From an uncultured Dehalococcoidales bacterium (lineage in GTDB: Bacteria > Chloroflexota > Dehalococcoidia > GIF9 > UBA5629), in NCBI GenBank assembly GCA_964548415.1, contig CAZJQG010000004.1:4259-68258 (forward strand): 64,000 bases of DNA, given 5' to 3'. A model generated the notes under the pieces. That model was not told the origin of the DNA and searched no databases. It saw only the letters and a program-made list of their open reading frames with translations. This document shows positions 15,063-53,481 of the stretch, in pieces (position 1 is the stretch's first letter; each line of letters opens with the position of its first letter). A program made the translations under genes and the position numbers.

Positions 15063-15118
15063 TGTTTTTAACAGTCCGTGGTGTTAAAGACAGTGTAGCT
15101 GATTGGTAGGGACTCTGC

Positions 15119-15147
15119 TTGACAGCTTTCTGACAAATACCTAATAT
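15119..15147 (+). promoter_or_regulatory. Sigma-70-like promoter for the FHA-wHTH regulator gene (TTGACA-17-TAATAT)
   Basis: TTGACA lies at 15119-15124, followed by a 17-nt spacer and TAATAT at 15142-15147, ~60 nt upstream of the ATG at 15211. Confidence 0.5.
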
Positions 15148-15210
15148 AAATCTGATATACTCACGGTTTAATCGCATGTATTATACTACACCGAATAAAA
15201 GGCAGCCCAA

Positions 15211-15894
15211 ATGGGTGGAGGTTACGTGGCTTCGTTAATTGTGAGGAAGGGCACCGCCGAGGACATAGGTAAAATCTTCAGCCTGGACCTGTCGCGCACT
15301 GTGGTTGGTCGGCTTACGCTGCAAAACAAACCCGATATCGAACTCAGCGCCGATGTCATTTCCAGACAGCACCTGGAGATTGTGAGTCAGGACGCTAAGT
15401 ACTGGGTGAAAGACCTGGGCAGCACCAACGGCACCACGCTTAACGACGACCGCATAATTCCTGGAAACCTATACGAGCTCAAGCACAATGCCAGGATAGG
15501 ATTGGGAGTGGAAGGGACGTCTCAGCAAACCGTCCTGGTGTTCAAGGAGTCCGAAGATACCAATATCATGCGGGCAAAAGAAGGCAGCGTACCCGCGGTA
15601 GTATCATGGCTGAAGGTAGACGAGGGCAGGAAGGAGGCCGTGGTGGACGGCAAGCCGAAGAAGCTATCCAAGAAGGAATACGACCTGCTGCTGCTGCTTT
15701 ATCGTAACGCCGGAAATATCTGCTCCCGCGACGAGATAATCGAGGCTGTCTGGCCGGAAACGAAGGACGCTTCGGCGATATCAGATGCCACCATCGACCA
15801 GCTTATTCACCGGCTGCGGGAAAAGGTGGAACCGAAACCTGCCAAACCGACGAGAATAATCAGTAAGAAGGCATTTGGCTATATGCTGGTGTAG
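15211..15894 (+). CDS. Fusion regulator: N-terminal FHA domain plus C-terminal OmpR/PhoB-type winged-helix DNA-binding domain
   Basis: The FHA block is VGRL...ISRQHLEIVSQDAKYWVKDLGSTNGTTLND. The wHTH block is LSKKEYDLLLLLYRNAGNICSRDEIIEAVWP...ATIDQLIHRLREKVE...IISKKAFGYMLV. No receiver domain is present. Confidence 0.85.
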   Translation: MGGGYVASLIVRKGTAEDIGKIFSLDLSRTVVGRLTLQNKPDIELSADVISRQHLEIVSQDAKYWVKDLGSTNGTTLNDDRIIPGNLYELKHNARIGLGVEGTSQQTVLVFKESEDTNIMRAKEGSVPAVVSWLKVDEGRKEAVVDGKPKKLSKKEYDLLLLLYRNAGNICSRDEIIEAVWPETKDASAISDATIDQLIHRLREKVEPKPAKPTRIISKKAFGYMLV

Positions 15895-36929: not shown

Positions 36930-39900
36930 TTACTGTGTCGCCTGATAATAAAAAGTACTGCTATAGTCCCCGGGGGTTTGTCCGGCAGGGATTGATATCC
37001 AGTGATAGCATTGATGAACATCGCCTGCATAGGCGGACACAGTATACCACGTGACGTAGCTGGTCTGCATAGTGCTGGCTCCGAGAGTAGTGTTGACGCT
37101 ATTATATTTGACGTTAGCTATTGATATATTTCCGGGACCGCTAAAGTTATCACCTCTAATCTGAACATTGACATCTACGTTTGTCTCCGTGCTAACGGTG
37201 AGTGTGACCGCACCCTGACTGGGTGTCTGGTCAGCGGGTTGATCGGTCGTTCCGGGGTTCAGGCTGCCAAACTTGATGCCGTCGCCACTATAGTCTGTGA
37301 CCGTGAATGAAATGTAGATATTTGACTCCCCGATAGCAAAATCGCCAAATGACGCCAATCCCGTCGCCTGCGTACTCGTAGACGTACGTGTGCCAACTGC
37401 GGGATATGCCCAGGTAGAGCCATTGAAATTGCCGACAATAAATGTACTGGTGTTGGCCCCACTATCGATATCGCCTGAATTGAAATTGAAGGTGGCGCTA
37501 TAGTTTGTGAAACCGATTCCTGAGTTTGTTAAGCTCCAGTATAAATTAACGCTCTTACTCGAATTGATTGTAGAAGATGCAATGGATGGGTGATCGCCTG
37601 GCGTGGCTTTTGCAGTTAGATTGCCGGCAGTGCCGACACTATTAAAAATTACAGTGACGGGATTATAGCCACTTGTGGTACCGATTTCGAATGTGCATGA
37701 GACGTTTGTCCCAGAAGAAACATTCTTCTGCAAGTTGCCGATGATATAGCCGCTGGTGCGTGAGACGCTGCCGCCGGTTCCAATTATGACTGTACTGCCG
37801 CCGGTGGTAATCTTGCTGCTGGTTAAATTAAGTATATTGTTGATTGTGGCGTTGTTATTCAGGTTAAGACCGTTGCTGTTATTAAGCGTAAGGTTATAAA
37901 AGGTGGTGGCGCCGGTCACCGACTGCGTGCTTGTCCCATTCAAGGTGATAGTGCTGCTATTTGCCGTGAACGTCCCACTATTATTCCAGTTTCCTGTCAG
38001 GCTCAGCGTGCTGGAACCGCCATTCAATGTGCCTGCGGTCAGCGTGACGTCGCCGTTGATGGTATGTGTTAATCCGGTACCAAGATTCAATGTCCCGCCA
38101 GAACCGTCAAGGGTTAAGGCAATTCCATTCACATTTCCGGTTAAGGTAGCCGTACCTCCGGTCTTTGTCATAGATACGATACCGGAGGTGGAGAAGCCGG
38201 CGATGCTCTGCGTTCCTGTGCCGCTGATTGTAATAGTGGAGGTGCCGGCGGTAAACGTGCCGCTATTGATAAAGTTGCCGCCGAATGTGAGGGCGTAGCT
38301 GCCGGTGTTTAATATGGCGCCGGTGTTAATAGTAAGCGGAGCGTTGATTACCTTCCCCTGATTTAGTGTAACCGCACTGCCACTCGTATTAGCAATTATT
38401 ACTCCTCCCGAACCGCTCCACGTTGCCGGAAATTCCGTTCCCGTCGTTTGAGCGCTGGTCCCCTTGTATTGCAGCGTAGCGGCCGCGCCGTATGTGGGGG
38501 TTGTTCCCGTGGTTGTGGCAGTCCCTTCAATGGAGAGAATGCCGTTAATATTTATGGTACCAATAGCCTTTTGCCCGCTGCCGGACAGTGTAAGGTTGTT
38601 ATATGTTGTCATCCATGTGGTCGGGAGCGTTTGAGCAGCGCCGTAGTACTCAACAGTACCCGTACCGGGAGTCCATGTGCCCCTCGTCCCATTGATTGAG
38701 ACTGTGGTACCGATTTTCAGAGTACCACCACTGGACATATTGATGCTACCCCGCCTATTACCATTACCCCCGACACTTAGCCATGTACCGATCGTGAGCT
38801 GTGATACGCTATTTAAAAATGATAGTGTTGAGGTGGTGTTATTGGTAGTACCCACGGTGAGGGTTGAGCATACAGCATCACTTACGTTGACGGTCACCGT
38901 ATAACCGTTGTTAATAAATACATTATCGTTCGAAGTAGGTACAGCGGCACCTCCCCAGGTGGCTGTATTGTTCCAGTTGCCACTAGCTGAGGCCGTTCTG
39001 GTAGCCGCTGGGGCGTATACCGGTGGCGTGGGGCCGGGTTCCGGTGTGGGGACTGGAGCGGGTATTATAGGCGGTGTTGCCGCCTCACCCATGGCTGTGG
39101 CTATGTTAATACGACCAAACCACTGGTTTGGTACCGGGTCAACCGCGCCTCGGATCTGGTCGAAGACATAATCATTGTTTTGTCCATTTGCCGTCAGTAG
39201 AGCTGCCAGCCCGGCTACATTGGCAGCGGCGGCAGAAGTGCCGCTTATGGTGTAATAATTACCGCCTATAAACGTAGTGTAAATACCGACTCCAGGTGCA
39301 GCCACGTTGGCGCTGCCCGTATTGCTATCAGCGGCTACATTATCGTCCTGGTCGGTGGATGCGACTCCAAGCACGTGCTCCATGCCAGCCGGATAACTGG
39401 GTGCAGTTGAACCATCGTTGCCCGTAGCGGCCACTAACACGCATCCCTTGTTCCATGCGTACTGGATGGCGTCCGCTAATGCATCCGAGTAATCGGGGCT
39501 GCTGAAGCCCATCAAAATAACATTGGCGCCGTTATCGGCTGCCCACAGCATGCCGGCCACGATATCGCTGTCCAGGCCAGTGCCATCAGGTTGAAGCACC
39601 TGGACCGAAGAGAGTGTAGTTCCAGCATAAGCTACGCCAGCGATGCCGACAGCGTTGTTGACATTGGCAGCGGCTATGCCGGCTAGCGCGGTTCCATGGC
39701 CGTTCGGGTCACAGCTGGCATCACCATCGACGAAGCTCTGTCCTGATACAATACGGCCGGCAAAATCCGGGTGACCGGAATCTATGCCTGTATCCAGCAC
39801 TGCAATCGTGGCCGAGCCGGTAAAATTCCGTATATCGTAAACTTGATCCCAGGACATCTTGGGCAGAGCCCATTGCTGCGAATACAGAGGATCATCCGGT

Positions 39901-40235
39901 GTTCCGGCCTTATGGAACTTGACGGCCTTGGATGCTCGTTCGACGTGAGGGTTATTTGCCAGCGTGGACAGTACATTGTCTGCTGCCGCCGCCGGCACGC
40001 TGATTACATGTGTGTGAAGTTGCGAAAAATGGCGTAGGGCTTTGCCATGTGAGGCCTGTATTGCTGTATCTACTGCAGAGGTATTATCAGCATCCTTGAA
40101 TTTGACGATGATTTGGACTGTATCGTCGGATGGCTGTGCCTGAGTGATGCTGGTCGAGCTCACCAGTGTGAGCGTCGCCAGCATCACCATGAGTGTCAGT
40201 CCAACAACACATCTACGCAAAAACTGCTTTCCCAT
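36930..40235 (-). CDS. Secreted subtilisin-like (S8) serine protease with I9 propeptide, long Thr/Gly/Asn-rich beta-helix-like passenger and a C-terminal domain homologous to the neighbouring 172-aa protein
   Basis: The catalytic triad blocks are AVLDTGIDSGHPDF, HGTALAGIAA and SGTSAAAANVAGLAALL. The I9-like block is IVKFKD...HVISVP. Imperfect ~20-aa TGxxxLxxxGN repeats follow. The start was taken at the Met before the signal peptide (MGKQFLRRCVVGLTLMVML). Confidence 0.85.
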   Translation of the reverse strand: MGKQFLRRCVVGLTLMVMLATLTLVSSTSITQAQPSDDTVQIIVKFKDADNTSAVDTAIQASHGKALRHFSQLHTHVISVPAAAADNVLSTLANNPHVERASKAVKFHKAGTPDDPLYSQQWALPKMSWDQVYDIRNFTGSATIAVLDTGIDSGHPDFAGRIVSGQSFVDGDASCDPNGHGTALAGIAAANVNNAVGIAGVAYAGTTLSSVQVLQPDGTGLDSDIVAGMLWAADNGANVILMGFSSPDYSDALADAIQYAWNKGCVLVAATGNDGSTAPSYPAGMEHVLGVASTDQDDNVAADSNTGSANVAAPGVGIYTTFIGGNYYTISGTSAAAANVAGLAALLTANGQNNDYVFDQIRGAVDPVPNQWFGRINIATAMGEAATPPIIPAPVPTPEPGPTPPVYAPAATRTASASGNWNNTATWGGAAVPTSNDNVFINNGYTVTVNVSDAVCSTLTVGTTNNTTSTLSFLNSVSQLTIGTWLSVGGNGNRRGSINMSSGGTLKIGTTVSINGTRGTWTPGTGTVEYYGAAQTLPTTWMTTYNNLTLSGSGQKAIGTININGILSIEGTATTTGTTPTYGAAATLQYKGTSAQTTGTEFPATWSGSGGVIIANTSGSAVTLNQGKVINAPLTINTGAILNTGSYALTFGGNFINSGTFTAGTSTITISGTGTQSIAGFSTSGIVSMTKTGGTATLTGNVNGIALTLDGSGGTLNLGTGLTHTINGDVTLTAGTLNGGSSTLSLTGNWNNSGTFTANSSTITLNGTSTQSVTGATTFYNLTLNNSNGLNLNNNATINNILNLTSSKITTGGSTVIIGTGGSVSRTSGYIIGNLQKNVSSGTNVSCTFEIGTTSGYNPVTVIFNSVGTAGNLTAKATPGDHPSIASSTINSSKSVNLYWSLTNSGIGFTNYSATFNFNSGDIDSGANTSTFIVGNFNGSTWAYPAVGTRTSTSTQATGLASFGDFAIGESNIYISFTVTDYSGDGIKFGSLNPGTTDQPADQTPSQGAVTLTVSTETNVDVNVQIRGDNFSGPGNISIANVKYNSVNTTLGASTMQTSYVTWYTVSAYAGDVHQCYHWISIPAGQTPGDYSSTFYYQATQ

Positions 40236-40310
40236 ATTGCTTCCTGGCTCCCTGCATCGCCAAGAAGTATCCATTGTCAGTGTTTTACGAGCAGGTTCTT
40301 ACTTTTTACT

Positions 40311-40829
40311 CTATAGCGTCTTGTCTATTTTGTAATCGAAATTAGTTTGGTAGGTTGCAGCCGCCTGTCCGGCCGGGATGTTAATCCAGTGCCACACACC
40401 CTGTGACCAGGCCACGCCGGGAGTTGTATCCGAGCCTATCTGAGCATAAGTCGTGTCCATGGCAGTTCCAGGAGTGACGTTATCGGTGTTCCAGGTGGCG
40501 TTGTCAAGAGCAAATGAATTGGTTCCACCATCGCTAAAGTCCCCCTCGCCTTTTAGGCCGACTTTGCAGACTGCATTGGTCTCTGCAGCCACATCGATGG
40601 TGACAGCGCCGGTACTATCACTCTGATTAATCTCGGGTACATTCGTATCACCCGGATTCAGAGTGCCGAAACCAATGGTCCCACCAGTAACGGTTACCGT
40701 AGCATTAATATATTCATTGATAGTTACCGATGCATTGACTGATTCCTCAACTGCCAGAACTGGTGCTGCCACAGTACCTACTAGGATGAGTGCACAGGCC
40801 AGGCTGATAAGTAGATTTGTTTTTTTCAA
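40311..40829 (-). CDS. Small secreted beta-sandwich (fimbrial / pilin-like or WxL-like) protein, first gene of the riboswitch-controlled operon
   Basis: The signal peptide is MKKTNLLISLACALILVGTVAAPVLA. The blocks FGTLNPGDT...GAVTIDVAAETN...WHWINIPAGQAAATYQTNFDY align with the S8 protease C-terminus (FGSLNPGTT...GAVTLTVSTETN...YHWISIPAGQTPGDYSSTFYY). It has a TTG start with GGAGG 5 nt upstream. Confidence 0.7.
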   Translation of the reverse strand: MKKTNLLISLACALILVGTVAAPVLAVEESVNASVTINEYINATVTVTGGTIGFGTLNPGDTNVPEINQSDSTGAVTIDVAAETNAVCKVGLKGEGDFSDGGTNSFALDNATWNTDNVTPGTAMDTTYAQIGSDTTPGVAWSQGVWHWINIPAGQAAATYQTNFDYKIDKTL

Positions 40830-41120: not shown

Positions 41121-41689
41121 GTGACTTAAACTAACCAAACCTCCCAAAAGCAGTACCTTTTTCCTATAAGAATTGGTACTTTTGAGCCATTTTATAATAT
41201 TTTGCGATACGATTGTGTCATACCGGTGGGCAAAATTGAGAAAAAAAATGGTACTAAAGACCTATTAATCGAAAGTCTAGTAATCCATGGCGTTACTGTA
41301 GGGCACGGGCCGGACAACTTCTGTGACCGGGTGCTTTTGACGACAGTGGAATCTTCGTAAACAGTGATACTATCCAGTTAAAGCGAAAAGGTGCCGTCTC
41401 AGCGAAGATTGTTACCGATCTAATCGAGTATGGTGCTAGCAGCTCTCGGGAAGTGGTGGTAATGGGTTCGCCAGGTTGACGATGACTCGATATCTTCGAA
41501 GTAATCTCCATTTGAGATGTAATGATGTTAACTGACTCGGGAGTAGGGAGGTCTTCTACCCCGTCCGTACTGGAAAAATCACAGTACTATCTAGCCACGA
41601 AATTCGGTACCTTTGCGGGATTGTAGGAGGAGATAAGATAGGATAGAGTTAGTATAGTTTCACAGCAGATAACATTAAGGAGTAAGAAC

Positions 41690-41938
41690 ATGGGAAAGAA
41701 AAATAACGGAAACGGACTTTTAACCGCCAGACAGGTGGCTCGGCTTCTTAATGTTCATGTGAATACGGTCCGGCGCTGGAATGACCGGGGCATTCTCAAG
41801 GCATACCGTATCGGTCCGCGCGGCGACCGGAGATTCGACAAGGCCGACGTCGAAGGTTTCCTGTCTGGTAACGGAGACGGTAGTGGCAATGACCAACACG
41901 GCAGCCAGTCTGTACCCGAGCTCGTACTCGTCAATTGA
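41690..41938 (+). CDS. Excisionase/MerR-superfamily small HTH DNA-binding protein (82 aa)
   Basis: LLTARQVARLLNVHVNTVRRWNDRGILKAYRIGPRGDRRFDKADVEGF is a typical excisionase-family HTH. AAGGAG lies upstream of the ATG. No integrase is nearby. Confidence 0.75.
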   Translation: MGKKNNGNGLLTARQVARLLNVHVNTVRRWNDRGILKAYRIGPRGDRRFDKADVEGFLSGNGDGSGNDQHGSQSVPELVLVN

Positions 41939-41995: not shown

Positions 41996-44900
41996 TTAGT
42001 AGTTAAACCGCCTCCATCTCATTAAAATCCATATGGCGAATGCCAGTATAATAACAGCAATAATGCCGCCGATTAGCCACCAGTTGAGGCTATTGGGCCC
42101 AGCTACTACAAATTCACCCTTTAGCCCGGCCACAGTCACCTGGTAGGTTCCAACGATGTCTTCGGTTGTAGTGAAACTCACCACGCTGCTTGTCCCGGCA
42201 GCAAGGGTTACTTCTTTCGTTGATTTCGTTATACCATTCACTTTTAGCTCAACGTTGTAGTTTCCAGCAGTGCTGCCCGTATTAGCTACATTTAAACCAA
42301 TGGTTACTTGCTGAGCGGGTTGTATTTGAGTCGGGTTGATAGTTAAATTGCTTACTTCAAATTTAGCTGCCGCCTCCGCAAGCTTAGCCAATAAAGTGTC
42401 GGGTACGAAATAGTCCAGAGTACCTACCGCTTGGCCGAGTTCGGCCACCGTACCTACGGAGCCCATGGCCTGCCAGCCCTGGTTTTGACTGGAGTAGTAA
42501 TCATAGGTTACCTGTGCAGTATTTTCTGGCAGCTCATTAGGGTCATAAGCTGAGGCGATAGTGAACAGCGGATAAATATTGATGGCTGACGGATCCGTGC
42601 CGTCCAATGAGGCATAAGCGTTAATATTATAGGCTTGTCCGATTGTCTGGCCACCAGTAACCGGTGGTGATGAGCTGGCGAGTGTTACTTTGATAAGTTG
42701 TGGTATCTGATTATCCACCAGGGTAAGCTTTGTTCCTTCTTTAGCTTCCCAGCTATCTTGCTTCTGCGGGTCGTAGGCCAGGCAATTTTCGCATAGCACA
42801 CCATCCGATGTCATTTTGGCGGTGGTTATTTGGCCCAGCATATTTACAGTAAGTGTTAGGGGACAACCGCCGCCTGTTGTTGTCTGCCCAAAACCAACTT
42901 CACCTCCGCCACCTCCGCCTCCACCGCCACATTGTATGACGCTAACCGTGGTTGTGGCATTATCGCTGATACAGCCGTTTGTGTTGGTAACAACCAGAGT
43001 ATAAGTGCCAGACATATTGGAGGTGGCATTAGGTATGGAGGGATTCTGCAAATTGCTGGAAAACCCGAGAGGCCCCGTCCAGCCATATGAAGCTACATTA
43101 TCTGAACCGGCCATTAGCTGTATAGTACCGCCGATGCAGACAGGTGAGTTAGTGGATGGAGCGGAGATGGGTATAGGATTTATGGTTACGTGTCCGGTGG
43201 CGGTGTCATCGGGGCAGACGCCGTTAGAGCAGGTGACGGTATAGTCGTAGGTCCCTGGAGTCGAAGGGTTAACCAGGTGATAATCTAGGGTCATAGAACA
43301 GGAGCCGGAGCAGGCGGCGCCGTTAGAGGTAAACAGGGTATCGTTAAGTGTCGTTCCCTGGCAGATAGAGAAATCGGGAGCGGTGGAAGTGCAGGGAGAA
43401 ACGACGGTTACGTGTCCGGTGGCGGTGTCATCGGGGCAGACGCCGTTAGAGCAGGTGACGGTATAGTCGTAGGTCCCTGGAGTCGAAGGGTTAACCAGGT
43501 GATAATCTAGGGTCATAGAACAGGAGCCGGAGCAGGCGGCGCCGTTAGAGGTAAACAGGGTATCGTTAAGTGTCGTTCCCTGGCAGATAGAGAAATCGGG
43601 AGCGGTGGAAGTGCAGGGAGAAACGACGGTTACGTGTCCGGTGGCGGTGTCATCGGGGCAGACGCCGTTAGAGCAGGTGACGGTATAGTCGTAGGTCCCT
43701 GGAGTCGAAGGGTTAACCAGGTGATAATCTAGGGTCATAGAACAGGAGCCGGAGCAGGCGGCGCCGTTAGAGGTAAACAGGGTATCGTTAGGTGTCGTTC
43801 CCTGGCAGATAGAGAAATCGGGAGCGGTACTTAAACAGGGAGCGACGATGGTTACATCGATGCTGTTATTACATGTGCAGCCGTTATTGGAGATAGTGAC
43901 TGCGATATGCGCTGTACCAGATGAAGCAGCATCCCAGGTGATAGAGTTGCCAGCATTACTCCCTACTATGCTACCGCTACCGGTTATAGTCCAATCATAG
44001 GTAGCGTTATCCACGGCGTTGGGTACTGAAGCCGAGTTGCTGGTGGAGTTTTCGCAGACTGCATTAGTTGTGTCGATGGTGCAGTCGGGCAGCGAGTTAA
44101 CGGTAATATAGTTTGTCTTTGTCTGGTTGTCAGAGCCACAATCATTCGTAGCGATTAAAGTGACGTAATAGCTGCCGGCCGTATCGTAGGTTATGGCTAG
44201 AGGATTCCGATCGCTCGAGAATGAAGGATTCCCGCCTTCGAAAGTCCAGCTAAAAGAGGTAGCGTTGGTGGATGTATTGGTAAAGATGACGTTATTGCCA
44301 GCGCAAATTGCAGTAGGACAGCCGGAGAAATCGGCGATAGGCCCATTGCATGTAACCTGTCCAAGCTTGGCGCAAATTGCATTAGCGTAAGCCTGACCGT
44401 TGGCGATTATCTGTACCCAGCCTGGCGGCGGATAAGCTGGCGGCGTAGCATAAGAGCCGGTTTGAGGCCAGACGATGTCAGTCCGCAGCCACTCGCTTGC
44501 CGTATCCTGTGAGGGACCTATATACTCAGCATCGATCTCATCCTGGTCAGAGGTCATGCCTAAATGACCGATGGTGTAAACTTGTGCTGCCTCCGTGCTG
44601 TCCATAGCCTCTGTACACCCATCAACGATATCGCACGAGTCACAGCCAACTGAATTATAGGGATGACCGGTGTCATTGCAACAGCGTGTGGGTATGCCAT
44701 CGGTGACTAGATTAACGACCTGTTTGATATCAGGATCAAAGCACGGTGCACCGTATAATGTATCGGCAGCCAGGTAAAAGGCGCAGGCTAGAGGGGTATA
44801 TCCGCCCCTTTTGGAGATGCCACTGATAGTATTGGCCACGCTAACGGCGTTGCTGGCCGTGATAACAGTAGGCGGTACTTCGATCACTGCCCCAATGCCT

Positions 44901-46795
44901 CCCGGTGGGAAGAGGGGCAGACCGATTTGTACCACCGTCAGCTGTATCGAGCCATCATGTATAAAACAGCCGGGATCTGCGTTCTCGATGGCTGAAGCCA
45001 GGCCGTTCTTCATATCGGTGAAATCGGTACCGGATATGCTGGCGCTACCATCCAAGATTATGGCTAGCTGGACCCGCAGAGGCACAAAGTCGGGGTCGGC
45101 GGCATCTATCAAAGTGTCGCAGTCGTTGTCGATGCCGTCGCAAACCTCCAGGGCGCCGGGATGGACATTGGGATTGGAATCGTTGCAGTCGGTGTTATCA
45201 GCAACATAGCCGACGGGCTGACTGCACGAAAACTGCTGGATACTGGGGTTGCCATATCCATCATTATCGCTGTCCCTATACCAGACTGTGGGTGAGTTAT
45301 AGGTAAAAGAACCGCTACTGGTAGCGGTGCCACCGGACGTGGTCACCGTAATTTGGCCGCTGGAGCCAGTGCCCACCACAGCCGTAATTTGGGTGGCCGT
45401 GTTAACAGTGTAACTGGCAGCATCGGTGCCGCCAAATTGAACCGCGGTGGTCCCGAGGAAATCGGTGCCATGGATTGTTACCGAAGTATCGGTGCAGCCG
45501 GATATCGGGTCAAACGAAGTAATCGTGGGTGGTGCTGGGGGAGTGTAGAAAATCTTTACCTGCACCTGGTCCAGCCATATGGAATCACCACCTCCAGTCG
45601 CATCCATCCTCACTCTAAAGCTATTGCTATTGATTATAGTCGTGGTCCATGAGCCGTATCCCCAATTGTTACTACTGCCTCCGAGCACTATCGTGGTATC
45701 ATAAGTCTGCAGACTGCCGGTATTTATAGCAGTTGTCCAGTGGGTGCCACCGTCGTAGGAGAGGGAGACGTCCCAGGTCCTTGATGAACTGGAATCTCTA
45801 TATCCCTCGATACTGACCTGAATGCCATCGATAGTAGAACCACCCGGAATAGTAAGTCCGAAACCATAGTATTGATTTATATCATTAGTGGAATCATACT
45901 CCGCTCTAAGGTTGTTTGAGGTATAAGCATAAGTCGGATTACCAACACCGCCTCCAGTGGAACTGTTAGGCTGTTTCCAGCCGTCTTCGAAACTAGCAGC
46001 TATTGTATGATTAGCGGTAACGTTGGTGAAAGTATAACTATTTGTTCGTCCTTGCGAGACGCTGTCTACTGCCACGTCAGAAACTATATAACTTGTATTT
46101 GGGGGGATGTCGAATGCCTGGTCATTTCCTTCATCGACCGATACGACACCGGAAGGTGTTATGCTACCTCCTGCTCCGGCAGTAGCGTTAATGGTATAAG
46201 TTACTGTCGGAGTGTAGTAAACCGTAATCCGAATAAAGTCTACATATATGTCAGTATTATTGCTCCGGGCTTGCGCTGCCATGTGGACACCAAATGTAGA
46301 GGCATTGATTTCAGAGCGAGTCCATGTTGTTCCCCATAGGTCGGTTGGCCCACCGTATGTTCTTATGGTTGCTGAGCCGGGCCAGTTAGGTGATGTAACG
46401 GCTTTGTTGTCACCTACCCGGGCGGTGCCGTTCTTTGTAAGTTGGACGAGGGCATCCCTGGCGCTACCGGCGCCGCAATATCTCTCAATCTCTACTTGGA
46501 TACCTGTTATGGCGTTACCAGCGGGTATGTTAAAGCTAAAGTTAGTTGCCATCAGGACATAAGAGTAATCATTGTCGTCAAAAGATGAGGCAGTTATGCT
46601 CGCATTATTCCCGTCATCGGCACTTATGTTACCCCGGTTTATCCAGTCTTCGTCGTTGTATGAACCCTCGGAATTTGTATTGACTGTTCCTGGATAGCTG
46701 ATGCCCGTATTGTCTGCCAGCGCTGTACCGGCCATTGGTAGTGTTAGTGCAAGGAGCATGATTACTCCGAGTATCAGGTATAATAGCCTTCTCAT
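41996..46795 (-). CDS. Giant (1599 aa) multidomain cell-surface adhesin
   Basis: Domains in N-to-C order:
- Signal peptide.
- Two paralogous ~150-aa N-terminal domains (motif I(T/D)GIQV(E/S)IE).
- IPT/TIG-like domain (ITSFDPISG...VTIHGTDF).
- MopE-type metal-binding motif (DNDGYG...CDGIDNDCD).
- VWA-like domain (ILDGSASISG).
- PKD-like domain (WTFEGG...YDTAGSYYVTLIATNDCG).
- Three tandem Cys-rich 74-aa repeats.
- Poly-Gly linker.
- The same C-terminal module and NWWLIG TM anchor as 34775..36139. Confidence 0.85.
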   Translation of the reverse strand: MRRLLYLILGVIMLLALTLPMAGTALADNTGISYPGTVNTNSEGSYNDEDWINRGNISADDGNNASITASSFDDNDYSYVLMATNFSFNIPAGNAITGIQVEIERYCGAGSARDALVQLTKNGTARVGDNKAVTSPNWPGSATIRTYGGPTDLWGTTWTRSEINASTFGVHMAAQARSNNTDIYVDFIRITVYYTPTVTYTINATAGAGGSITPSGVVSVDEGNDQAFDIPPNTSYIVSDVAVDSVSQGRTNSYTFTNVTANHTIAASFEDGWKQPNSSTGGGVGNPTYAYTSNNLRAEYDSTNDINQYYGFGLTIPGGSTIDGIQVSIEGYRDSSSSRTWDVSLSYDGGTHWTTAINTGSLQTYDTTIVLGGSSNNWGYGSWTTTIINSNSFRVRMDATGGGDSIWLDQVQVKIFYTPPAPPTITSFDPISGCTDTSVTIHGTDFLGTTAVQFGGTDAASYTVNTATQITAVVGTGSSGQITVTTSGGTATSSGSFTYNSPTVWYRDSDNDGYGNPSIQQFSCSQPVGYVADNTDCNDSNPNVHPGALEVCDGIDNDCDTLIDAADPDFVPLRVQLAIILDGSASISGTDFTDMKNGLASAIENADPGCFIHDGSIQLTVVQIGLPLFPPGGIGAVIEVPPTVITASNAVSVANTISGISKRGGYTPLACAFYLAADTLYGAPCFDPDIKQVVNLVTDGIPTRCCNDTGHPYNSVGCDSCDIVDGCTEAMDSTEAAQVYTIGHLGMTSDQDEIDAEYIGPSQDTASEWLRTDIVWPQTGSYATPPAYPPPGWVQIIANGQAYANAICAKLGQVTCNGPIADFSGCPTAICAGNNVIFTNTSTNATSFSWTFEGGNPSFSSDRNPLAITYDTAGSYYVTLIATNDCGSDNQTKTNYITVNSLPDCTIDTTNAVCENSTSNSASVPNAVDNATYDWTITGSGSIVGSNAGNSITWDAASSGTAHIAVTISNNGCTCNNSIDVTIVAPCLSTAPDFSICQGTTPNDTLFTSNGAACSGSCSMTLDYHLVNPSTPGTYDYTVTCSNGVCPDDTATGHVTVVSPCTSTAPDFSICQGTTLNDTLFTSNGAACSGSCSMTLDYHLVNPSTPGTYDYTVTCSNGVCPDDTATGHVTVVSPCTSTAPDFSICQGTTLNDTLFTSNGAACSGSCSMTLDYHLVNPSTPGTYDYTVTCSNGVCPDDTATGHVTINPIPISAPSTNSPVCIGGTIQLMAGSDNVASYGWTGPLGFSSNLQNPSIPNATSNMSGTYTLVVTNTNGCISDNATTTVSVIQCGGGGGGGGGEVGFGQTTTGGGCPLTLTVNMLGQITTAKMTSDGVLCENCLAYDPQKQDSWEAKEGTKLTLVDNQIPQLIKVTLASSSPPVTGGQTIGQAYNINAYASLDGTDPSAINIYPLFTIASAYDPNELPENTAQVTYDYYSSQNQGWQAMGSVGTVAELGQAVGTLDYFVPDTLLAKLAEAAAKFEVSNLTINPTQIQPAQQVTIGLNVANTGSTAGNYNVELKVNGITKSTKEVTLAAGTSSVVSFTTTEDIVGTYQVTVAGLKGEFVVAGPNSLNWWLIGGIIAVIILAFAIWILMRWRRFNY
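43184..43828. repeat. Near-perfect tandem repeat, 222-nt unit x 2.9, inside the adhesin gene
   Basis: GGTTACGTGTCCGGTGG recurs at 43184, 43406 and 43628. The units are identical apart from one or two substitutions (for example TTAAGT vs TTAGGT, giving Leu vs Pro). Confidence 0.95.
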
Positions 46796-46843
46796 TTCTC
46801 TATTACGCCTCCTATTCGCGGCAATCCTGGATGTTCGCTAAAA

Positions 46844-46936
46844 TAAAAAAACCGACCGTTAAAATGGGTCGGTTTCACTACTGGCTCAGCACAAGTCAAG
46901 TGACCAAATTATTACTCGTGCTTCATCGCCCCCCAA
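46844..46936 (-). promoter_or_regulatory. Class-II c-di-GMP riboswitch (aptamer plus terminator), copy 2, upstream of the giant adhesin
   Basis: The minus strand reads GGGGGGCGAUGAAGCACGAGUAAUAAUUUGGUCACUUGACUUGUGCUGAGCCAGUAGUGAAACCGACCC-AUUUUAAC-GGUCGGUUUUUUU. AGGAGG and the ATG at 46795 follow ~35-50 nt later. Confidence 0.8.
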
Positions 46937-47048
46937 CAAGTTCTTAAGTACGTAAATTATTTCGAGTTGGTTACCTCCATGGCAGCCTTCGACTTGATTT
47001 GAAGTTACTTAAACAACACGCAAATCTGCCAAATTTACGATAATTTAC

Positions 47049-47077
47049 ATAATCGCATAGTACCAGTTACTTGTCAA
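47049..47077 (-). promoter_or_regulatory. Sigma-70-like promoter TTGACA-17-GATTAT driving riboswitch copy 2 and the adhesin gene
   Basis: On the minus strand, TTGACA is at 47077-47072, the spacer is 17 nt and GATTAT is at 47054-47049. Confidence 0.6.
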
Positions 47078-47300
47078 GAGTTTTTTCACCCTTTTTTCAC
47101 AAAGTTTTCATGAAATCTTCACGTTTCTCTGAGGCCGCAAACTAATTATCTTCGGCCAAAGGCTTTGTAATCTTTCCCCGGCACATTTCCTCGTTTATTT
47201 AGGAATTCAGTACTAGTGAGTTGGGGGACTAAACTACGGCGAAAAACGTGACCTACGGGTCATTCGAAAGCTCAGCCAACCGGTTAAACTAGCCCTTAAC

Positions 47301-48326
47301 ATGGTAAAAACGGGGAAGTTTATTTGGTTGGCGCTCATTCTCCTGATTACGCTAGTGGTTACAGTATTAGCTCCAACCCTTGTTAGAATCTCAGGCATTT
47401 CCTTGACAGGTTCAGTCGCGGTTCTGCCATTTGAACCGGGAACCGAAATTCAAAAGCCCAGTTCGATTGTTCCGAAAGATTCTTCCGGAAAGCAGTGGGC
47501 TATAACGAAGGTAATGGCGCCACAAGCCTGGCAGGTTACTGGCGGTGAGCCGAATATCCTGATAGCTGTATTGGATACCGGAATCGATAAAGACCAGAAA
47601 GACCTCGCTGGCAAGGTGATGGCCGAAATCAATTTCACCGATAGCGATACAGTTGAAGATGTTTACGGCCATGGCACTCATATAGCGGGCATCATTGCAG
47701 CCTGGGCAAAAAATAGTGGCGGTGTTGACGGTTTGGCTCCCGATTGTCGACTGCTTAATGTGAAGGTGGCTGACGATCAGGGCAGATTTGACAGCAAAGT
47801 AGCAGCTAAAGGCGTCATCTGGGCGGTTGACCATGGTGCCAAGGTCATAAACATGAGTCTGGTTACCCTGGAGCCGTCGTCCGCCTTGGAGGCGGCAATT
47901 GACTATGCCTGGAACAAAGGGGCTGTTGTAGTCGCTGCAGCCGGCAATCTCGTTGGCGATAAGATTGTATATCCAGCATATTATTCGCGGTGCATCGCCG
48001 TGGCTGCCACTGACAGCAACGACAGTATAGCTTCCTGGTCCAGCCAGGGAGAATGGGTGGATGTAGCGGCGCCGGGTGTGGATATTTATTCTACGCTGCC
48101 CCGAGATAATTATGGCTACAAAAGCGGGACCTCAATGGCATCGGCTCATGTATCAGGAGTGGCCGGGCTATTATTTGCTCTGGAGAAAGACACTGACGGC
48201 GATGGCCTGATTAACGATGAAGTCAGGTCTGCGCTTGAGAACGGTTGTGATGGTCTTGATGCAGGTGTTGTAAAAGGGCGAATTAATGCCTATCATGCAG
48301 TGAATAGCGCGTTAACCTCCAAATAG
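47301..48326 (+). CDS. Membrane-anchored/secreted subtilisin-like (S8) serine protease (341 aa)
   Basis: The triad blocks are AVLDTGIDKDQKDL, HGTHIAGIIAA and SGTSMASAHVSGVAGLL. The N-terminus has a hydrophobic helix. Confidence 0.9.
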   Translation: MVKTGKFIWLALILLITLVVTVLAPTLVRISGISLTGSVAVLPFEPGTEIQKPSSIVPKDSSGKQWAITKVMAPQAWQVTGGEPNILIAVLDTGIDKDQKDLAGKVMAEINFTDSDTVEDVYGHGTHIAGIIAAWAKNSGGVDGLAPDCRLLNVKVADDQGRFDSKVAAKGVIWAVDHGAKVINMSLVTLEPSSALEAAIDYAWNKGAVVVAAAGNLVGDKIVYPAYYSRCIAVAATDSNDSIASWSSQGEWVDVAAPGVDIYSTLPRDNYGYKSGTSMASAHVSGVAGLLFALEKDTDGDGLINDEVRSALENGCDGLDAGVVKGRINAYHAVNSALTSK

Positions 48327-48329
48327 ACG

Positions 48330-48385
48330 GAACGAAGCAACCTCATTCAATTTACTCACCCCTGAGGTTGCTTCGTTCTGATATT
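48330..48385 (+). terminator. Intrinsic terminator after the S8 protease gene
   Basis: GAACGAAGCAACCTCA - 17-nt loop - TGAGGTTGCTTCGTTC is followed by a T-rich tract. Confidence 0.7.
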
Positions 48386-48469
48386 TTCGGTAGTAATTCC
48401 ATCAACTCGATATAGCTTCGAATTCCAGTTCTTTCCTTTTTATTATAGTGGCAGTATAATCTGGAAATC

Positions 48470-49951
48470 ATGCCCAAAATGGATAAAGACCTCTATGGTC
48501 TGCTCACCACGCTGTCCGATATCCTCACCCCCAAGCAAAGACCGGCTTATGTGGTTGGTGGGTTTGTCCGTGACTGGCTCCTGGGAAAGGATACCGTTGA
48601 TGTTGATATTGCTGTTCAGGGGGACGCACTAAAAACAGCTCATCAAGTGGCCCAAGCGGTTAACGGGAAATATGTTTTGCTTGATCAAGTCAATAAAGTT
48701 GCCAGGGTGGTTGTCACATCTGGGCGACAATGGCATCTGGATTTCAGTACGTTTCAAATCGATATCGAGTCAGACCTGGCACGGCGTGATTTCACCGTCA
48801 ATGCTATGGCCTTCGAACTTCAGGGTTTGATTGACGGCTCGCCAAGTATTATCGATCCGTTCTCAGGCAAAGGAGACTTGAAGAAGAAGCGGGTACGCGC
48901 GGTCAGCGAGCAAATCTTTCACGCAGATGCCGCCAGACTAATGCGCGCCCTTAGAATAGCCGCCGAACTCAACTTTAAGATTGAGCCTGCCACAGAAACG
49001 CTCATCAGGAAAGATTGCCAGTTGGCAGCACTGGTTCCGGGCGAACGGCTGCGCGATGAGCTGGTCAGGATACTTGCGGTGCCTGGAGCCGCTGCTTTGG
49101 TACGATATATGGATAGCCTCGGTTTGCTGACCGCCATTATTCCTGAACTGGACTGTTTAAAAGGCGTGGAACAGCCGAAAGAGCATTATTGGGATGTATT
49201 TAATCATTCCGTTGAAACGATAGCCACAGCTGAATTTTTACTGCGGGAAAGTAGGTGGAAGTACGGGAAAACTAGTTTGTTGTCCGTAACTCCCTGGTCG
49301 GAAGAAGTGGAGCATCATTTTGATGGTGAGATTTCATCGGGGACGAACAGGAAGGTGATGCTAAAGATTGGTGCATTGATGCACGATATAGCCAAGCCTG
49401 CCACCAAGGCCGTTGATGAGACGGGCAGGACGCGTTTTTTGGGTCATCCCAAAGAGGGTGCCGCGATTACAGTGAAAGTTTTGGAGAGACTCAGGTTCAG
49501 TAGTCGGGAAATTAGACTGGCAGAAAACTTGGTTTATCATCACCTGCGTCCGGCACAAATGTCCAATGTGGGGATGCCGACCAGTCGGGCTATTTTCAGA
49601 TATTTCCGGGATACGGAGGGAGCCGGAATCGATATATTGTTTTTAGCGCTGGCCGATTATTTAGCCACGCACGGTCCCAAACTTGACATTCAGGAGTGGA
49701 ACAATCATAATCATGTGATTAATTTTGTACTGACCGAGCATTTGCATCAGGAAACCAAGGTTTTACCGGTCAAGTTGATAGATGGCAATGATTTAATGAA
49801 GACCTTCGGCTTGAAGCCGGGGCGCTTATTGGGCGAGCTTTTAAAGGAAGTGCAAGAAGCTCAAGCCGCCCGAGAACTGAGTACCAGGGAGCAAGCTCTG
49901 GACCTGGTCAGGAAAGAATTAGAAAAAAGGCAGTGCGGTTCAGCATGCTAA
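48470..49951 (+). CDS. cca: CCA-adding tRNA nucleotidyltransferase / poly(A) polymerase family protein with HD domain
   Basis: The head-domain block is VVGGFVRDWLLGKDTVDVDIAV and RRDFTVNAMA. The HD block is MHDIAKP...LGHPKEG. Confidence 0.8.
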   Translation: MPKMDKDLYGLLTTLSDILTPKQRPAYVVGGFVRDWLLGKDTVDVDIAVQGDALKTAHQVAQAVNGKYVLLDQVNKVARVVVTSGRQWHLDFSTFQIDIESDLARRDFTVNAMAFELQGLIDGSPSIIDPFSGKGDLKKKRVRAVSEQIFHADAARLMRALRIAAELNFKIEPATETLIRKDCQLAALVPGERLRDELVRILAVPGAAALVRYMDSLGLLTAIIPELDCLKGVEQPKEHYWDVFNHSVETIATAEFLLRESRWKYGKTSLLSVTPWSEEVEHHFDGEISSGTNRKVMLKIGALMHDIAKPATKAVDETGRTRFLGHPKEGAAITVKVLERLRFSSREIRLAENLVYHHLRPAQMSNVGMPTSRAIFRYFRDTEGAGIDILFLALADYLATHGPKLDIQEWNNHNHVINFVLTEHLHQETKVLPVKLIDGNDLMKTFGLKPGRLLGELLKEVQEAQAARELSTREQALDLVRKELEKRQCGSAC

Positions 49952-49985
49952 ACTTAGTCAATCAAATAAATAGGCAGGCAGTCAA

Positions 49986-51320
49986 TTGAAAAGAGCAAAT
50001 ACACCACTACTAATTTTTATCCTGGCTCTATTTGCCGTCTGTGTCTGGTTCATTTTGCCGGGTAATGGATTTGGTGACAGAAAAGATTTCAAATTGGGCC
50101 TCGACCTTAAAGGCGGCAGCCATCTGGTCTATAGAATAGACCTCTCGAAAAAGGACCCGTCTCAGTCGGACGCCGACGTTATAGCCGGCGTTAAACAAAA
50201 GATCGAACGCCGCGTAAATGCCTACGGTGTCACCGAGCCCATTGTCCAGACAATCACTAATGAGGGAGGCAGCTTCGTTCTCGTTCAGTTGCCCGGCGTC
50301 ACCGACATAGATGAGGCAATTAACCTCATCGGCCAGACCGCAGAACTGGACTTCAGGGAACAAGTGGTCGATGCTAGCGGCAAGCCGGTACTTGATGCCG
50401 AGGGCAACCAGGAATGGAAAATTGCCACGGCCAAAGGCACCGATGGGCAGGAAAGAGAGCTAACAGGTAAATATCTAAAACCAAACGCTCAGGTGGTTCT
50501 GACTCCGCAAACTAATGAGCCTGAGGTAGCATTTGAGTGGAATTCGGAGGGTGCCACGCTCTTTGAGCAGATCACGCAACGCAACTTAAATAAACCTCTC
50601 GGTATATTTCTTGATAATAAACTTATTTCGGCACCGACGGTGCAGGCTGTAATTAAGGATAAAGGCGTCATCACCGGCCTGACCCTGGAAAACGCCAAGA
50701 CACTGGCCATACAGTTGAATTCGGGTTCATTGGATGTTCCGCTGACGATAGTGGAACGCAGAGATATTGGCGCAACTCTAGGCGCGGATTCTCTGAAGAA
50801 AAGCCTTGAAGCCGGTATCATCGGGGCCGCCATGGTCATTATTTTTATGATCGCCTATTACCGGTTCTCCGGCCTTATGGCATGTCTGGCTTTAATAGTC
50901 TACGTGGCCTTAACCTTAGCCGTATTTAAGCTGATTCCGGTAGTTTTGACGCTGCCCGGTATAGCCGGCTTTCTGGTTTCGGTCGGCATGGGAGTAGATG
51001 GCAATGTCCTTGTCGCCGAGCGCCTTAAAGAAGAATTGAGACGCGGGCGCACCCTGGGAGCGGCTATAGAGGAAGGCTTCAAGCAGTCGTGGTCAGCCAT
51101 TTTAGATGCCAACGTAACCGTATTTATCGCCTGCATAGTTCTATACTGGCTGGGCAATACATTCGGCAATTTCCTGGTTCTGGGTTTTGCCACCACTTTG
51201 TTCATAGGTACACTTTTAAGCATGTTTACGCAGGTTGTAGTAACCAGGACTTTCCTCCGCGCCGTTGTAGGTGCCGGTATGGCTAAGAGTCCCGCGGCTT
51301 ATGGAGTAGCGAAACAATGA
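49986..51320 (+). CDS. secD: Protein translocase subunit SecD
   Basis: LGLDLKGGSHLVY...ELDFRE are followed by the C-terminal 6-TM domain. It has a TTG start and lies directly upstream of secF with a 4-nt overlap. Confidence 0.9.
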   Translation: MKRANTPLLIFILALFAVCVWFILPGNGFGDRKDFKLGLDLKGGSHLVYRIDLSKKDPSQSDADVIAGVKQKIERRVNAYGVTEPIVQTITNEGGSFVLVQLPGVTDIDEAINLIGQTAELDFREQVVDASGKPVLDAEGNQEWKIATAKGTDGQERELTGKYLKPNAQVVLTPQTNEPEVAFEWNSEGATLFEQITQRNLNKPLGIFLDNKLISAPTVQAVIKDKGVITGLTLENAKTLAIQLNSGSLDVPLTIVERRDIGATLGADSLKKSLEAGIIGAAMVIIFMIAYYRFSGLMACLALIVYVALTLAVFKLIPVVLTLPGIAGFLVSVGMGVDGNVLVAERLKEELRRGRTLGAAIEEGFKQSWSAILDANVTVFIACIVLYWLGNTFGNFLVLGFATTLFIGTLLSMFTQVVVTRTFLRAVVGAGMAKSPAAYGVAKQ

Positions 51321-52225
51321 TTGATTTAGTAGGCAAAAGGAACTGGTTTTTTCTCATCTCGGCGATAGTAATTATCCCGGGCATTATTTCACTGGCTGTA
51401 TTTGGGCTTAAGCCGGGAGTTGATTTTAGCAGTGGCACGGCGATAACGTTTCATTTTGATAAAACGGTGGAGTTGGGCCAGTTACGGCAGGAGTTAACTA
51501 ACGAGGGCTATGACCAGGCAGTCGTTCAACCCGCGGGAGAGGGCGATTTCTTTGTGCGACTCCCCGAAATGTCTACCGACCAAACTACAAAACTAAAAAA
51601 TGATTTGCAAACGGGATTGGATACCACGGTAACCATTAGCAGCCTTTATACCGTCTCGCCTATAGTCGCGGCCGGCACTGTTCGGAATACCATCATTGCG
51701 ATAGTAGTGGCTGCCGTGGCCATTTTGCTGTATATATCGTGGGCCTTTCGTAAAATGCCTAAGCCATTTCGGTGGGGCACCTGTGCTATTATCGCGCTAG
51801 TACACGACCTGGTGGTAGTTATCGCCATATTTTCAATTCTGGGTTGGGCGGCCGGTGTGGAGGTTGATGCACTATTCGTGACCGGCGTACTGGCTGTGGT
51901 CGGCGTTAGCGTTAATAATATAGTAGTCGTGTTTGACCGCATCAGGGAAAATATGAAGAGGGGCATAAGCCGTGACTTCGAGGTAGTAGCGAACTACGGC
52001 ATTGTTGAGTCTTTAGGACGTTCTCTGAATACAGGCTTGGCCACACTATTTGTGATAGTGGCTCTTTACTTGCTGGGCGGGCAGACTACACATACGCTGG
52101 TGTTAGCACTGCTTATAGGTATAGCCACCGGAATATACTCATCATTGTGTATTGCCGGGCAGCTTCTGGTAGTCTGGGAAAAAGGCCTGGCACCAAGAAA
52201 AAAGGAAGCGGTTAGCTCTATCTAA
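51317..52225 (+). CDS. secF: Protein translocase subunit SecF
   Basis: GVDFSSGTAITF is followed by the 6-TM domain with VHDLVVVIAIFSI and FDRIREN. Confidence 0.9.
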   Translation: MIDLVGKRNWFFLISAIVIIPGIISLAVFGLKPGVDFSSGTAITFHFDKTVELGQLRQELTNEGYDQAVVQPAGEGDFFVRLPEMSTDQTTKLKNDLQTGLDTTVTISSLYTVSPIVAAGTVRNTIIAIVVAAVAILLYISWAFRKMPKPFRWGTCAIIALVHDLVVVIAIFSILGWAAGVEVDALFVTGVLAVVGVSVNNIVVVFDRIRENMKRGISRDFEVVANYGIVESLGRSLNTGLATLFVIVALYLLGGQTTHTLVLALLIGIATGIYSSLCIAGQLLVVWEKGLAPRKKEAVSSI

Positions 52226-52260
52226 TTACCGGCTTTCCTTCAAATTGCCAGTACCCAAAA

Positions 52261-53292
52261 TCAAATCTGGTGGATTTCTTTCACCATTCGTACGAAGTTA
52301 TCAAAGCTTATGTGCCTCGATCTTGCCGGCTGTCTACCGAGGGGGTCGGAAATTTGCTTCTCACCCCTGAGCGTGTCCAAAGTGGCCGCTATCGATAGCG
52401 ACAGCGCTTCAAGATTGTAGCCGCCCTCGAGGACGAAGACCATCTTCCCCTGGCACAGCATATCGGCCAGAGTTATAATAATTTCGACCAGGCGGGCAAA
52501 GCCTGATACACTGAGCTGCATCGATGCCAGCCTGTCAGCCCAGTGGGCGTCGTAACCTGCTGAAACCATAATTATCTGGGGCTCAAACCGCTTCGCTATC
52601 GGCGCTAAAATGTCTTCGAAAACTTTCTGGTACTCGTCATCGCCCCAGCCTGCAAGGAGTGGAATGTTGACGGTAAAACCCTCTCCGCCTCCGGCTCCCG
52701 TCTCATCTATGCTGCCCGTTCCCGGGTAAAACGGATATTCATGAGTGGAGAAATAAAGTACGTTCGGGTCGGCGTAGAATGTATCCTGTGTACCATTGCC
52801 GTGATGGACGTCGAAATCCACTATTAGTATACGTTTGATATCGAAATTGGCGAGTGCGTATTTTGCAGCTATGGCTATATTATTGAATAGGCAGAAGCCC
52901 ATTGCTTGCCAGCAAGTTGCGTGGTGTCCGGGAGGCCTGACCAGCGCGAAAGAACTGCTTACCTCCCTGTTCATCACGGCATCAACCGCGGTTATGGTAC
53001 CCCCGGCGGCGAACAAAGCTGCGTTGTACGAACCTGGCGAGGTCACTGTGTCGTGATCCAGCCAGCCTCCGCCCCTCTCCGATTGACTTCTAATTCGTGA
53101 AATATATTCAGGCGCATGAACCGCCGTCAGTTCAGCGACGGTAGCCGCACGCGGATGCAATAAATTGAGTTTATCTATTGAGTGGGTGTCCTCGAGGTGG
53201 GATAGGGTGGCTGTCAGCCGCTGACCGTTTTCAACGTGAGTCCCGGTATCGTGTTCTAGATAAACAGGGTCAGAAATCAGGCCGACTCTCAT
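52261..53292 (-). CDS. Histone deacetylase-family (AcuC/HDAC class) deacetylase
   Basis: The motifs RPPGHHA, DFDVHHGNGTQ and EGGYN are present. The start was moved to the internal Met (MRVGLISDPVYLEHDTG) because the upstream extension overlaps the DegV promoter region. Confidence 0.85.
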   Translation of the reverse strand: MRVGLISDPVYLEHDTGTHVENGQRLTATLSHLEDTHSIDKLNLLHPRAATVAELTAVHAPEYISRIRSQSERGGGWLDHDTVTSPGSYNAALFAAGGTITAVDAVMNREVSSSFALVRPPGHHATCWQAMGFCLFNNIAIAAKYALANFDIKRILIVDFDVHHGNGTQDTFYADPNVLYFSTHEYPFYPGTGSIDETGAGGGEGFTVNIPLLAGWGDDEYQKVFEDILAPIAKRFEPQIIMVSAGYDAHWADRLASMQLSVSGFARLVEIIITLADMLCQGKMVFVLEGGYNLEALSLSIAATLDTLRGEKQISDPLGRQPARSRHISFDNFVRMVKEIHQI

Positions 53293-53481
53293 ACGTACTT
53301 TGCTCTTTGGGAAAATGTGGCAGGCAATTTGTTTAAAGAGCATGCCTATGATAGCAAAGCTGGACGTAATGGGCAACAAATGCCTTGTATCCAACGTTGA
53401 AATAACATAGAATATGAAGTCGCCTCGCATATCTAGGCATATCACGCTTGATAAGTCACTCGGAATATACAGGAGGACTAA

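Follow-up and report, generated by a model that had tools for sequence, protein, structure and literature searches.

An earlier note on this DNA had placed a second copy of a c-di-GMP riboswitch before the gene of a 1599-aa adhesin and had left the long leader in front of it unexplained. The locus raises the question of whether this second copy (copy 2) is a genuine riboswitch that controls the adhesin gene, how it is related to the first copy (copy 1) in the window (the whole stretch of 64,000 nucleotides that was analyzed), and whether its leader is a regulatory element in its own right.

Copy 2 belongs to the class II c-di-GMP riboswitches

The minus strand from 46936 to 46844 reads exactly as the earlier note had quoted it; this range begins with P1 and ends with the U-run of the terminator. 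A scan of the whole window with Rfam 15 (cmscan) returned exactly two matches above the gathering score, both to the c-di-GMP-II family (RF01786; gathering score, 53.5 bits) and both on the minus strand. Copy 2 was matched at 46942-46858, which we take as the aptamer boundaries (65.5 bits; E value, 2.1e-12), and copy 1 at 41062-40978 (74.9 bits; E value, 4.8e-15). Each match covered the full length of the family model (positions 1 to 84 of 84), and RF01786 was the best-scoring family within its Rfam clan, the lower clan matches being discarded. Since both copies lie above the c-di-GMP-II gathering score, the description of copy 2 as a second copy of the same c-di-GMP riboswitch holds. Under our own covariance model (R1), copy 2 scored 98.4 bits.

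The four-base-pair P1 of copy 2 joins 46935-46932 to 46868-46865, and P2 joins 46930-46928 to 46885-46883. The P3 hairpin (46921-46889) has the 5′ arm GCACGAGU at 46921-46914 and the 3′ arm ACUUGUGC at 46896-46889. Within the P3 loop lies the 5′ strand of the pseudoknot, GGUCAC (46905-46900), to which the 3′ strand GUGA(AA)CC (46878-46871) is complementary. The unit of copy 1 (41120-40969, minus strand) comprises a promoter at 41120-41092, the aptamer at 41062-40978, and a terminator at 40996-40969. In the Rfam alignment, 30 of the 34 strongly conserved (upper-case) consensus positions are retained in copy 2 and 32 of the 34 in copy 1. The exceptions in copy 2 are A12G and U30A, which are found in this copy only, and both sides of one compensated pseudoknot pair. 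This third pair of the pseudoknot is U-A in both copies and G-C in the Rfam consensus (GGGCAC/GUGC..CC). By family match and fold, copy 2 qualifies as a genuine member of the class II c-di-GMP riboswitches, and it is predicted to bind c-di-GMP.

Compensatory changes in P3 support the fold and set the two copies apart

Pattern scans for the aptamer subtype identified 6 genome loci (5 Dehalococcoidia/Chloroflexota MAGs and 1 Bacillota MAG) and 23 metagenome contigs. A covariance model made from 24 aptamers then yielded 32 distinct copies in related loci, which come mostly from Dehalococcoidia/Chloroflexota metagenomes. Paired cells amounted to 89.6% in the alignment of these 32 aptamers, compared to 27 to 44% when the partners were slid. 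Cells with double changes numbered 43, against 15.7 ± 4.0 in shuffles, and the observed covariation score was reached by none of 500 shuffles, statistics which overstate the significance because the relatives share ancestry and the alignment was fitted to the model. Nevertheless, the three-helix fold can be regarded as secure in view of the slid controls and of how many pair types occur. The support is unevenly distributed: seven of the eight P3 pairs showed changes on both sides, P1 was well supported at its three G-C pairs only, and P2 is nearly invariant and hence uninformative with regard to covariation. The complementarity of the pseudoknot was invariant in all 24 aligned members; these bases had been required by the search patterns, and their invariance therefore does not count as independent or covariation evidence. 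Noncompensatory helix changes were looked for in the homologues, and compensatory changes were found instead. A coding function of the aptamer region was rejected as well, since the open reading frames (ORFs) that cross it are at most 54 aa long, the two that overlap the aptamer encode just 35 and 38 aa, and compensatory changes such as those in P3 are not what a coding region would show.

Of the 73 core positions, 12 differ between the two copies, and half of these differences (6 of 12) make up three compensated pairs in P3, a helix formed by GCACGAGU and ACUUGUGC in copy 2 and by GCACCGUU and AGCGGUGC in copy 1. From copy 1 to copy 2, the three consecutive pairs change from C-G to G-U, from G-C to A-U, and from U-G to G-C, and none of them is broken. 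Thus, the compensatory change in the internal helix that the earlier note had described was reproduced, with three positions altered and all three still paired. The blocks AAUUUGGUCACUUGA and GAGCCAGUAGUGAAACCGACCC do not differ between the copies. Their identity had been reported correctly; their presumed single-strandedness was not upheld, as they contain the pseudoknot strands, the 3′ strand of P2 (GCC), and the 3′ strand of P1 (CCC). Each copy is approximately 92% identical to aptamers of other organisms, whereas the two copies share 84% identity. Because each is closer to the aptamers of other organisms than to its partner in the window, the copies are old paralogues. This difference in identity and the recurrence of P3 compensation among the 32 aptamers both agree with the proposal that selection has acted on the RNA structure and that no recent DNA duplication took place.

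A terminator shares its 5′ arm with the aptamer

Copy 2 runs into an intrinsic terminator (46876-46845, minus strand) that consists of GAAACCGACC, a 9-nt loop, GGUCGGUUUU, and a U-run. The hairpin has a predicted energy of -13.2 kcal/mol (RNAfold), is followed by 7 U, and is present in the minimum free energy structure of the whole leader; the terminator of copy 1 (40996-40969, minus strand) reaches -14.0 kcal/mol. The same aptamer-terminator platform was observed in all related units inspected except those of the Bacillota locus L001 and of L015, whose terminator region is cut at the end of the locus. The 5′ arm of the copy 2 terminator, GAAACCGACC (46876-46867), overlaps the 3′ strands of the pseudoknot and of P1. 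As these nucleotides are shared, the terminator and the ligand-bound aptamer are mutually exclusive, and from the same overlap we infer that the switch is of the transcriptional ON type.

According to this model, the 3′ tail of the aptamer, GUGAAACCGACCC, would have two competing partners. When c-di-GMP is bound, the tail would pair with the P3 loop to form the pseudoknot and would close P1, so that the terminator is blocked and RNA polymerase reads into the gene. When the ligand is absent, GAAACCGACC would instead pair with the downstream GGUCGGUUUU, and the resulting terminator with its U-run would stop transcription at approximately 46845. High levels of c-di-GMP would thereby lead to production of the surface protein, and copy 1 would by the same means control the neighboring operon, which encodes a secreted protein and an S8 protease. 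We consider it very probable that copy 2 is a class II c-di-GMP aptamer acting as a transcriptional ON switch for the gene of the 1599-aa adhesin-like protein and that copies 1 and 2 are old paralogues.

The compensation of all three altered P3 pairs, the intact core and pseudoknot strands, the intact terminator and U-run, and the retention of the whole unit in the syntenic orthologues L002 and L157 despite a DNA divergence of approximately 26% make it very unlikely that copy 2 is a decayed or nonfunctional relic with a class II appearance and no regulatory activity, even though its score is lower than that of copy 1 (65.5 versus 74.9 bits), its P1 is just 4 bp long, and a G replaces the conserved A12. 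Such relics would have precedent in Clostridioides difficile, in which only 11 of 16 predicted c-di-GMP riboswitches regulate and 5 of 16 (about a third) do not (PMC6366702).

Genes for surface and secreted proteins lie downstream of the two copies

The gene behind copy 2 (46813-41996, minus strand; ORF list, translation, and Pfam) is preceded by a Shine-Dalgarno (SD) sequence, AGGAGG (46813-46808), and starts with the ATG at 46795. Its 1599-aa product carries a signal peptide, a C-terminal membrane anchor, and PKD, VWA, and MopE-type domains (Pfam). Copy 2 is thus located in the 5′ untranslated region (UTR) of a gene for an adhesin-like surface protein, as had been proposed. Between residues ~1010 and 1240, the protein (41996-46795, minus strand) contains three near-identical tandem repeats of approximately 75 aa (…TAPDFSICQGTT.NDTLFTSNGAACSGSCSMTLDYHLVNPSTPGTYDYTVTCSNGVCPDDTATGHVT…), which points to a recent internal duplication.

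Copy 1 is followed by genes for a 172-aa secreted protein (40311-40829, minus strand) and a 1114-aa S8 protease (36930-40274, minus strand), and two more downstream genes encode a 454-aa CARDB/fn3 protein and a 238-aa protein without a Pfam match. The genes downstream of the related riboswitches again encode proteins with signal peptides, the large ones with PKD, Ig, or cadherin-like domains. When homologues of the N terminus of the adhesin (P0035, P0027, and P0091) were inspected, none had a riboswitch upstream, and most matches shared only a repeat domain. In the interval that separates the two riboswitch units, a gene for an 82-aa HTH_17/MerR-like protein (41690-41938, plus strand) is oriented convergently to the adhesin gene. 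The DNA of this gene is also conserved in the loci L004, L005, and L006, and an equivalent 76-aa HTH_17 gene adjoins the riboswitch unit of L160.

No GGDEF, EAL, or HD-GYP genes were detected in the 64-kb window by motif scan and Pfam. Some GEMM-I variants sense cGAMP, and the variant families c-di-GMP-II-GAG and c-di-GMP-II-GCG belong to the same Rfam clan as RF01786. It is very unlikely that the copies are members of such a variant family or use the class II fold to sense another ligand, as the U-A pseudoknot pair that is fixed in this lineage (G-C in the Rfam consensus) and a window with no c-di-GMP cyclase gene in view might suggest, because canonical RF01786 is the best clan match for both copies, the pseudoknot change preserves Watson-Crick pairing, the remaining strongly conserved core positions are canonical, and surface protein genes are a classic c-di-GMP output.

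The long leader of copy 2 contains a conserved SD-like block

The distal promoter of copy 2 (47077-47049, minus strand) is of the sigma-70 type and reads TTGACA-17-TG-GATTAT, with an extended -10 element and 10 of 12 consensus positions. The promoter scan found the same arrangement, TTGACA-17-TG-GATTAT, for copy 1 (41120-41092, minus strand). From the predicted transcription start to P1, the leader of copy 2 (47042-46937, minus strand) spans approximately 105 nt and that of copy 1 approximately 30 nt; the positions of the two matching promoters thus account for both leader lengths that the earlier note had given. The distal promoter is conserved in L002, L014, L019, L023, and L157. In most related units, the distance between the -10 element and the ATGAAGC motif is 41 to 53 nt; a minority, namely, copy 2 of the window, L014/L025, L019, and L023, has distances of 105 to 125 nt. 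Homologous long leaders were identified in L002, L014, L019, L023, L008, and L157. They have diverged from each other except for a block of approximately 40 nt just upstream of P1.

This block has the consensus AGGCnnnCA-GGAGGUnAYYAACUnnnRRUARUU and occupies 46988-46950 (minus strand) in copy 2, with the SD-like GGAGGU at 46978-46973. Its core, AGGUAACCAACUCGAAAUAAUU, is unique in the window, where 0.03 chance matches are expected. The block precedes the aptamer in nine other units, among them the two tandem aptamers of L023, and its core was found at this place in every long-leader unit; L010, L027, and L157 have variant forms of it. In seven of seven long leaders, GGAGGU or AGGUGAU is the best site for pairing with the anti-SD sequence (-10.6 to -14.7 kcal/mol, calculated with an assumed 16S 3′ end instead of the one of this genome), and the site is always located 29 to 39 nt before P1. 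Compared to shuffles, the pairing reached modest significance for the individual leaders (P values of 0.00 to 0.15). The block can also be read as a weak promoter, CTGCCA-18-AATAAT (46985-46956, minus strand). The leader is thus real and recurs in a subclass of the related units, and the SD-like block alone is its conserved feature.

Several other functions of the leader were tried and rejected. A structured RNA or second riboswitch was not supported, since the RNAalifold consensus of six leaders amounted to only -2 kcal/mol with no real covariation; single leaders folded no better than shuffles (z scores of -0.9 to +0.4; copy 2, -0.9), and an Rfam E-value scan of the leader revealed no known RNA family. 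A mini-ORF (ATG GAG GTA ACC AAC TCG AAA TAA) lacks an in-frame start codon in most orthologues, and the leader does not code for a conserved peptide. Antitermination by pairing of the leader with the 3′ arm of the terminator was significant in L157 only, where the leader contains a perfect 14-bp complement to the 3′ half of its own first terminator (z score, -5.5); the z score for the window was -0.4. Pairing of the leader with the aptamer 3′ tail or the P3 loop was not significant in the seven leaders, with the exception of L019 and the P3 loop (P of ~0.01), a pairing that the other six leaders did not reproduce. The copy 2 leader sequence GTTTAAGTAACTT resembles the -35 region of copy 1 over 13 nt. 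This likeness was set aside as either due to chance or too decayed to function, given that the sequence at the equivalent -10 position reads ATGGAG and the other long leaders show no such resemblance. Finally, a scan with AGGTNAYY-N30-60-GGCNATGAAGC returned 80 loci, none of them with an aptamer, as this pattern is too loose for a collection of 596 Gb; a strict pattern of block plus aptamer had L002 as its sole match.

The promoters of the two copies are preceded by different repeats

Four heptamers, GTGAAGA, ATGAAAA, GTGAAAA, and GTGAAAA (47122-47083, minus strand), abut the -35 element of copy 2 with an exact period of 11 bp, at positions -45, -34, -23, and -12 relative to TTGACA. The periodic array was also present in L002, L014, L019, and L157. 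It looks like a putative activator-binding site for a winged-helix protein of the OmpR/PhoB type. The window encodes a 227-aa protein with FHA and OmpR/PhoB-type Trans_reg_C domains (15211-15894, plus strand), whose gene adjoins those of a Ser/Thr kinase, a PP2C phosphatase, and four more FHA proteins within 8585-15894. To regard this protein as a candidate binder of the heptamer array is speculative. The short-leader promoters, including that of copy 1 (~41125-41190, minus strand), have a common upstream region with two AAAGGTAC repeats in the layout …AAAGGTACCA…TTATAGGAAAAAGGTACTG…GATAGGATAAG…TTGACA, which was seen in many related loci. This region is probably the site of a regulator different from that of copy 2.

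Possible functions of the leader block

The block might act at the RNA level as an SD-like 30S-binding site without an ORF, that is, as a 5′ stabilizer or ribosome stand-by site of the STAB-SD type, a function that we put forward only tentatively. In this role, it would shield the long mRNA of the adhesin against 5′-to-3′ decay by RNase J, an enzyme that is encoded at 27856-29514. Conservation within the block is highest at GGAGGU/AGGUGAU, and this sequence is not followed by a conserved start codon or ORF; as the best anti-SD site at a fixed 29 to 39 nt before P1 in all seven long leaders, it fits such a role, as does the fact that the block travels with the aptamer in the tandem duplication of L023. 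However, the shuffle significance per leader is modest (P, 0.00 to 0.15), the 16S 3′ end was assumed and not taken from this genome, and such a role does not account for the conserved TAACU...AUARUU portion. The short-leader units, moreover, also drive long genes and do so without the block. The STAB-SD of Bacillus thuringiensis cryIIIA is a 5′ mRNA stabilizer, an SD-like sequence in the 5′ UTR far from the start codon. Both cases combine a strong SD-like sequence with a long 5′ UTR, a large distance to the start codon, and an organism with RNase J. The site described here differs in its fixed distance upstream of an aptamer and its position within a larger conserved block.

The alternative that the block acts as DNA is rather doubtful. 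It would then represent a second, weaker promoter, CTGCCA-18-AATAAT, with a start near 46949 and perhaps an operator in the spacer, and transcription would begin at two sites, with the 105-nt leader present on the distal transcript only. This promoter was listed by the promoter scan at 46985-46956. Its equivalent in L008 reads CTGACA-18-TG-AATAGT, and the distal -35 element has apparently been deleted in that locus; in L010 and L027, no consensus promoter precedes the block. A2 and T6 of the -10-like hexamers are retained throughout the units. The -35-like hexamer, on the other hand, shows little conservation (CTGCCA, CCGACA, CAGCCG, CCAACA, and CTACCA), and conservation is highest in the spacer, opposite to the pattern expected for a plain promoter. 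In L023, moreover, the second block falls within a tandem transcript, at a place that requires no promoter.

It appears unlikely that the heptamer array, the SD-like block, and the riboswitch together make up a new kind of composite control region, one that accompanies the class II c-di-GMP aptamers of Dehalococcoidia. In such a region, the four-heptamer array would bind a winged-helix factor of the OmpR/PhoB type that sets transcription initiation, the SD-like block would recruit 30S subunits or another factor to tune transcript stability or aptamer folding, and the riboswitch would then gate elongation. If true, a single adhesin gene would receive three inputs.

Distribution in relatives and comparison with known systems

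L002, a Dehalococcoidia MAG, is syntenic with 46842-53385 of the window at 74% identity, including the riboswitch, the leader, and the promoter. The orthologues of the neighboring S8 peptidase are annotated as Dehalococcoidia or Chloroflexota and led to the syntenic loci L155, L157, and L160. The type of promoter-and-leader cassette at the site adjoining the S8 peptidase gene differs among relatives, which suggests that cassettes may have been swapped among surface protein genes. The riboswitches are clustered: two lie in the window, a single related contig has as many as three, and tandem pairs occur. Two complete class II units lie in tandem before one surface protein gene in L023 (1244-1471) and L157 (2478-2681; also in L158). 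The Bacillota locus L001 contains one c-di-GMP-I and two c-di-GMP-II riboswitches within 2.5 kb (3392-3483 and 1047-1954).

The class II riboswitches of C. difficile control pili and sortase-anchored adhesins (Cdi-2-4 of pilA1, Cdi-2-3 of CD2831, and Cdi-2-1 of CD3246); four of four are ON switches, and Cdi-2-4 was shown to act via a transcription terminator (PMC6366702). The units described here have in common with them the aptamer class RF01786, the surface protein targets, and the presence of several copies per genome (PMC6366702). In contrast to C. difficile, the host is a relative of the Dehalococcoidia/Chloroflexota and not a Firmicute, one pseudoknot pair is U-A instead of G-C, and the targets are membrane-anchored PKD/VWA proteins and not sortase substrates. 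Copy 2 further differs by its leader of ~105 nt with the conserved SD-like block and by the four heptamers with an 11-bp period before the promoter. Repeated aptamer-terminator units for the same ligand are also known from tandem c-di-GMP riboswitches such as the class I triple-tandem Bc3-5 of B. thuringiensis (survey, PMC12452182). L023 and L157 are similar to these, with two class II units in series before one gene, whereas the two copies in the window are 5.9 kb apart and belong to separate transcription units, so that they would act in parallel on different genes.

The riboswitch class has long been known and its gene context here is typical, and knowledge of the class itself is unchanged. 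In the literature searched, we found no paper that links c-di-GMP-II riboswitches to Chloroflexi or Dehalococcoidia; one survey mentions Chloroflexota solely for a general enrichment of riboswitches. Our analysis indicates that relatives of the Dehalococcoidia, which are largely uncultured and whose surface biology is poorly understood, probably wire large PKD/VWA surface proteins and an S8 protease operon to c-di-GMP, with the RNA device by which Clostridia control adhesins and pili. The clustering of the switches and the possible swapping of cassettes may help to predict attachment regulons from metagenomic data.

Two further intergenic elements were observed in the window. A leader/promoter block of ~100 nt (47199-47300, plus strand) upstream of the S8 peptidase gene (47301-48326) is near-invariant in six orthologous loci. 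It contains the hairpin GUGACC-UACG-GGUCAU, which is invariant and so shows no covariation, and has no Rfam match. A REP-like intergenic repeat, which does not correspond to tRNA genes, occurs at 3738-3776, 6606-6643, 7766-7802, and 8379-8416. It forms the hairpin CCCTCTCCC-TCAA-GGGAGAGGG, preceded by CACCCTCACCCT, and copies of it are present in L005 and L006.
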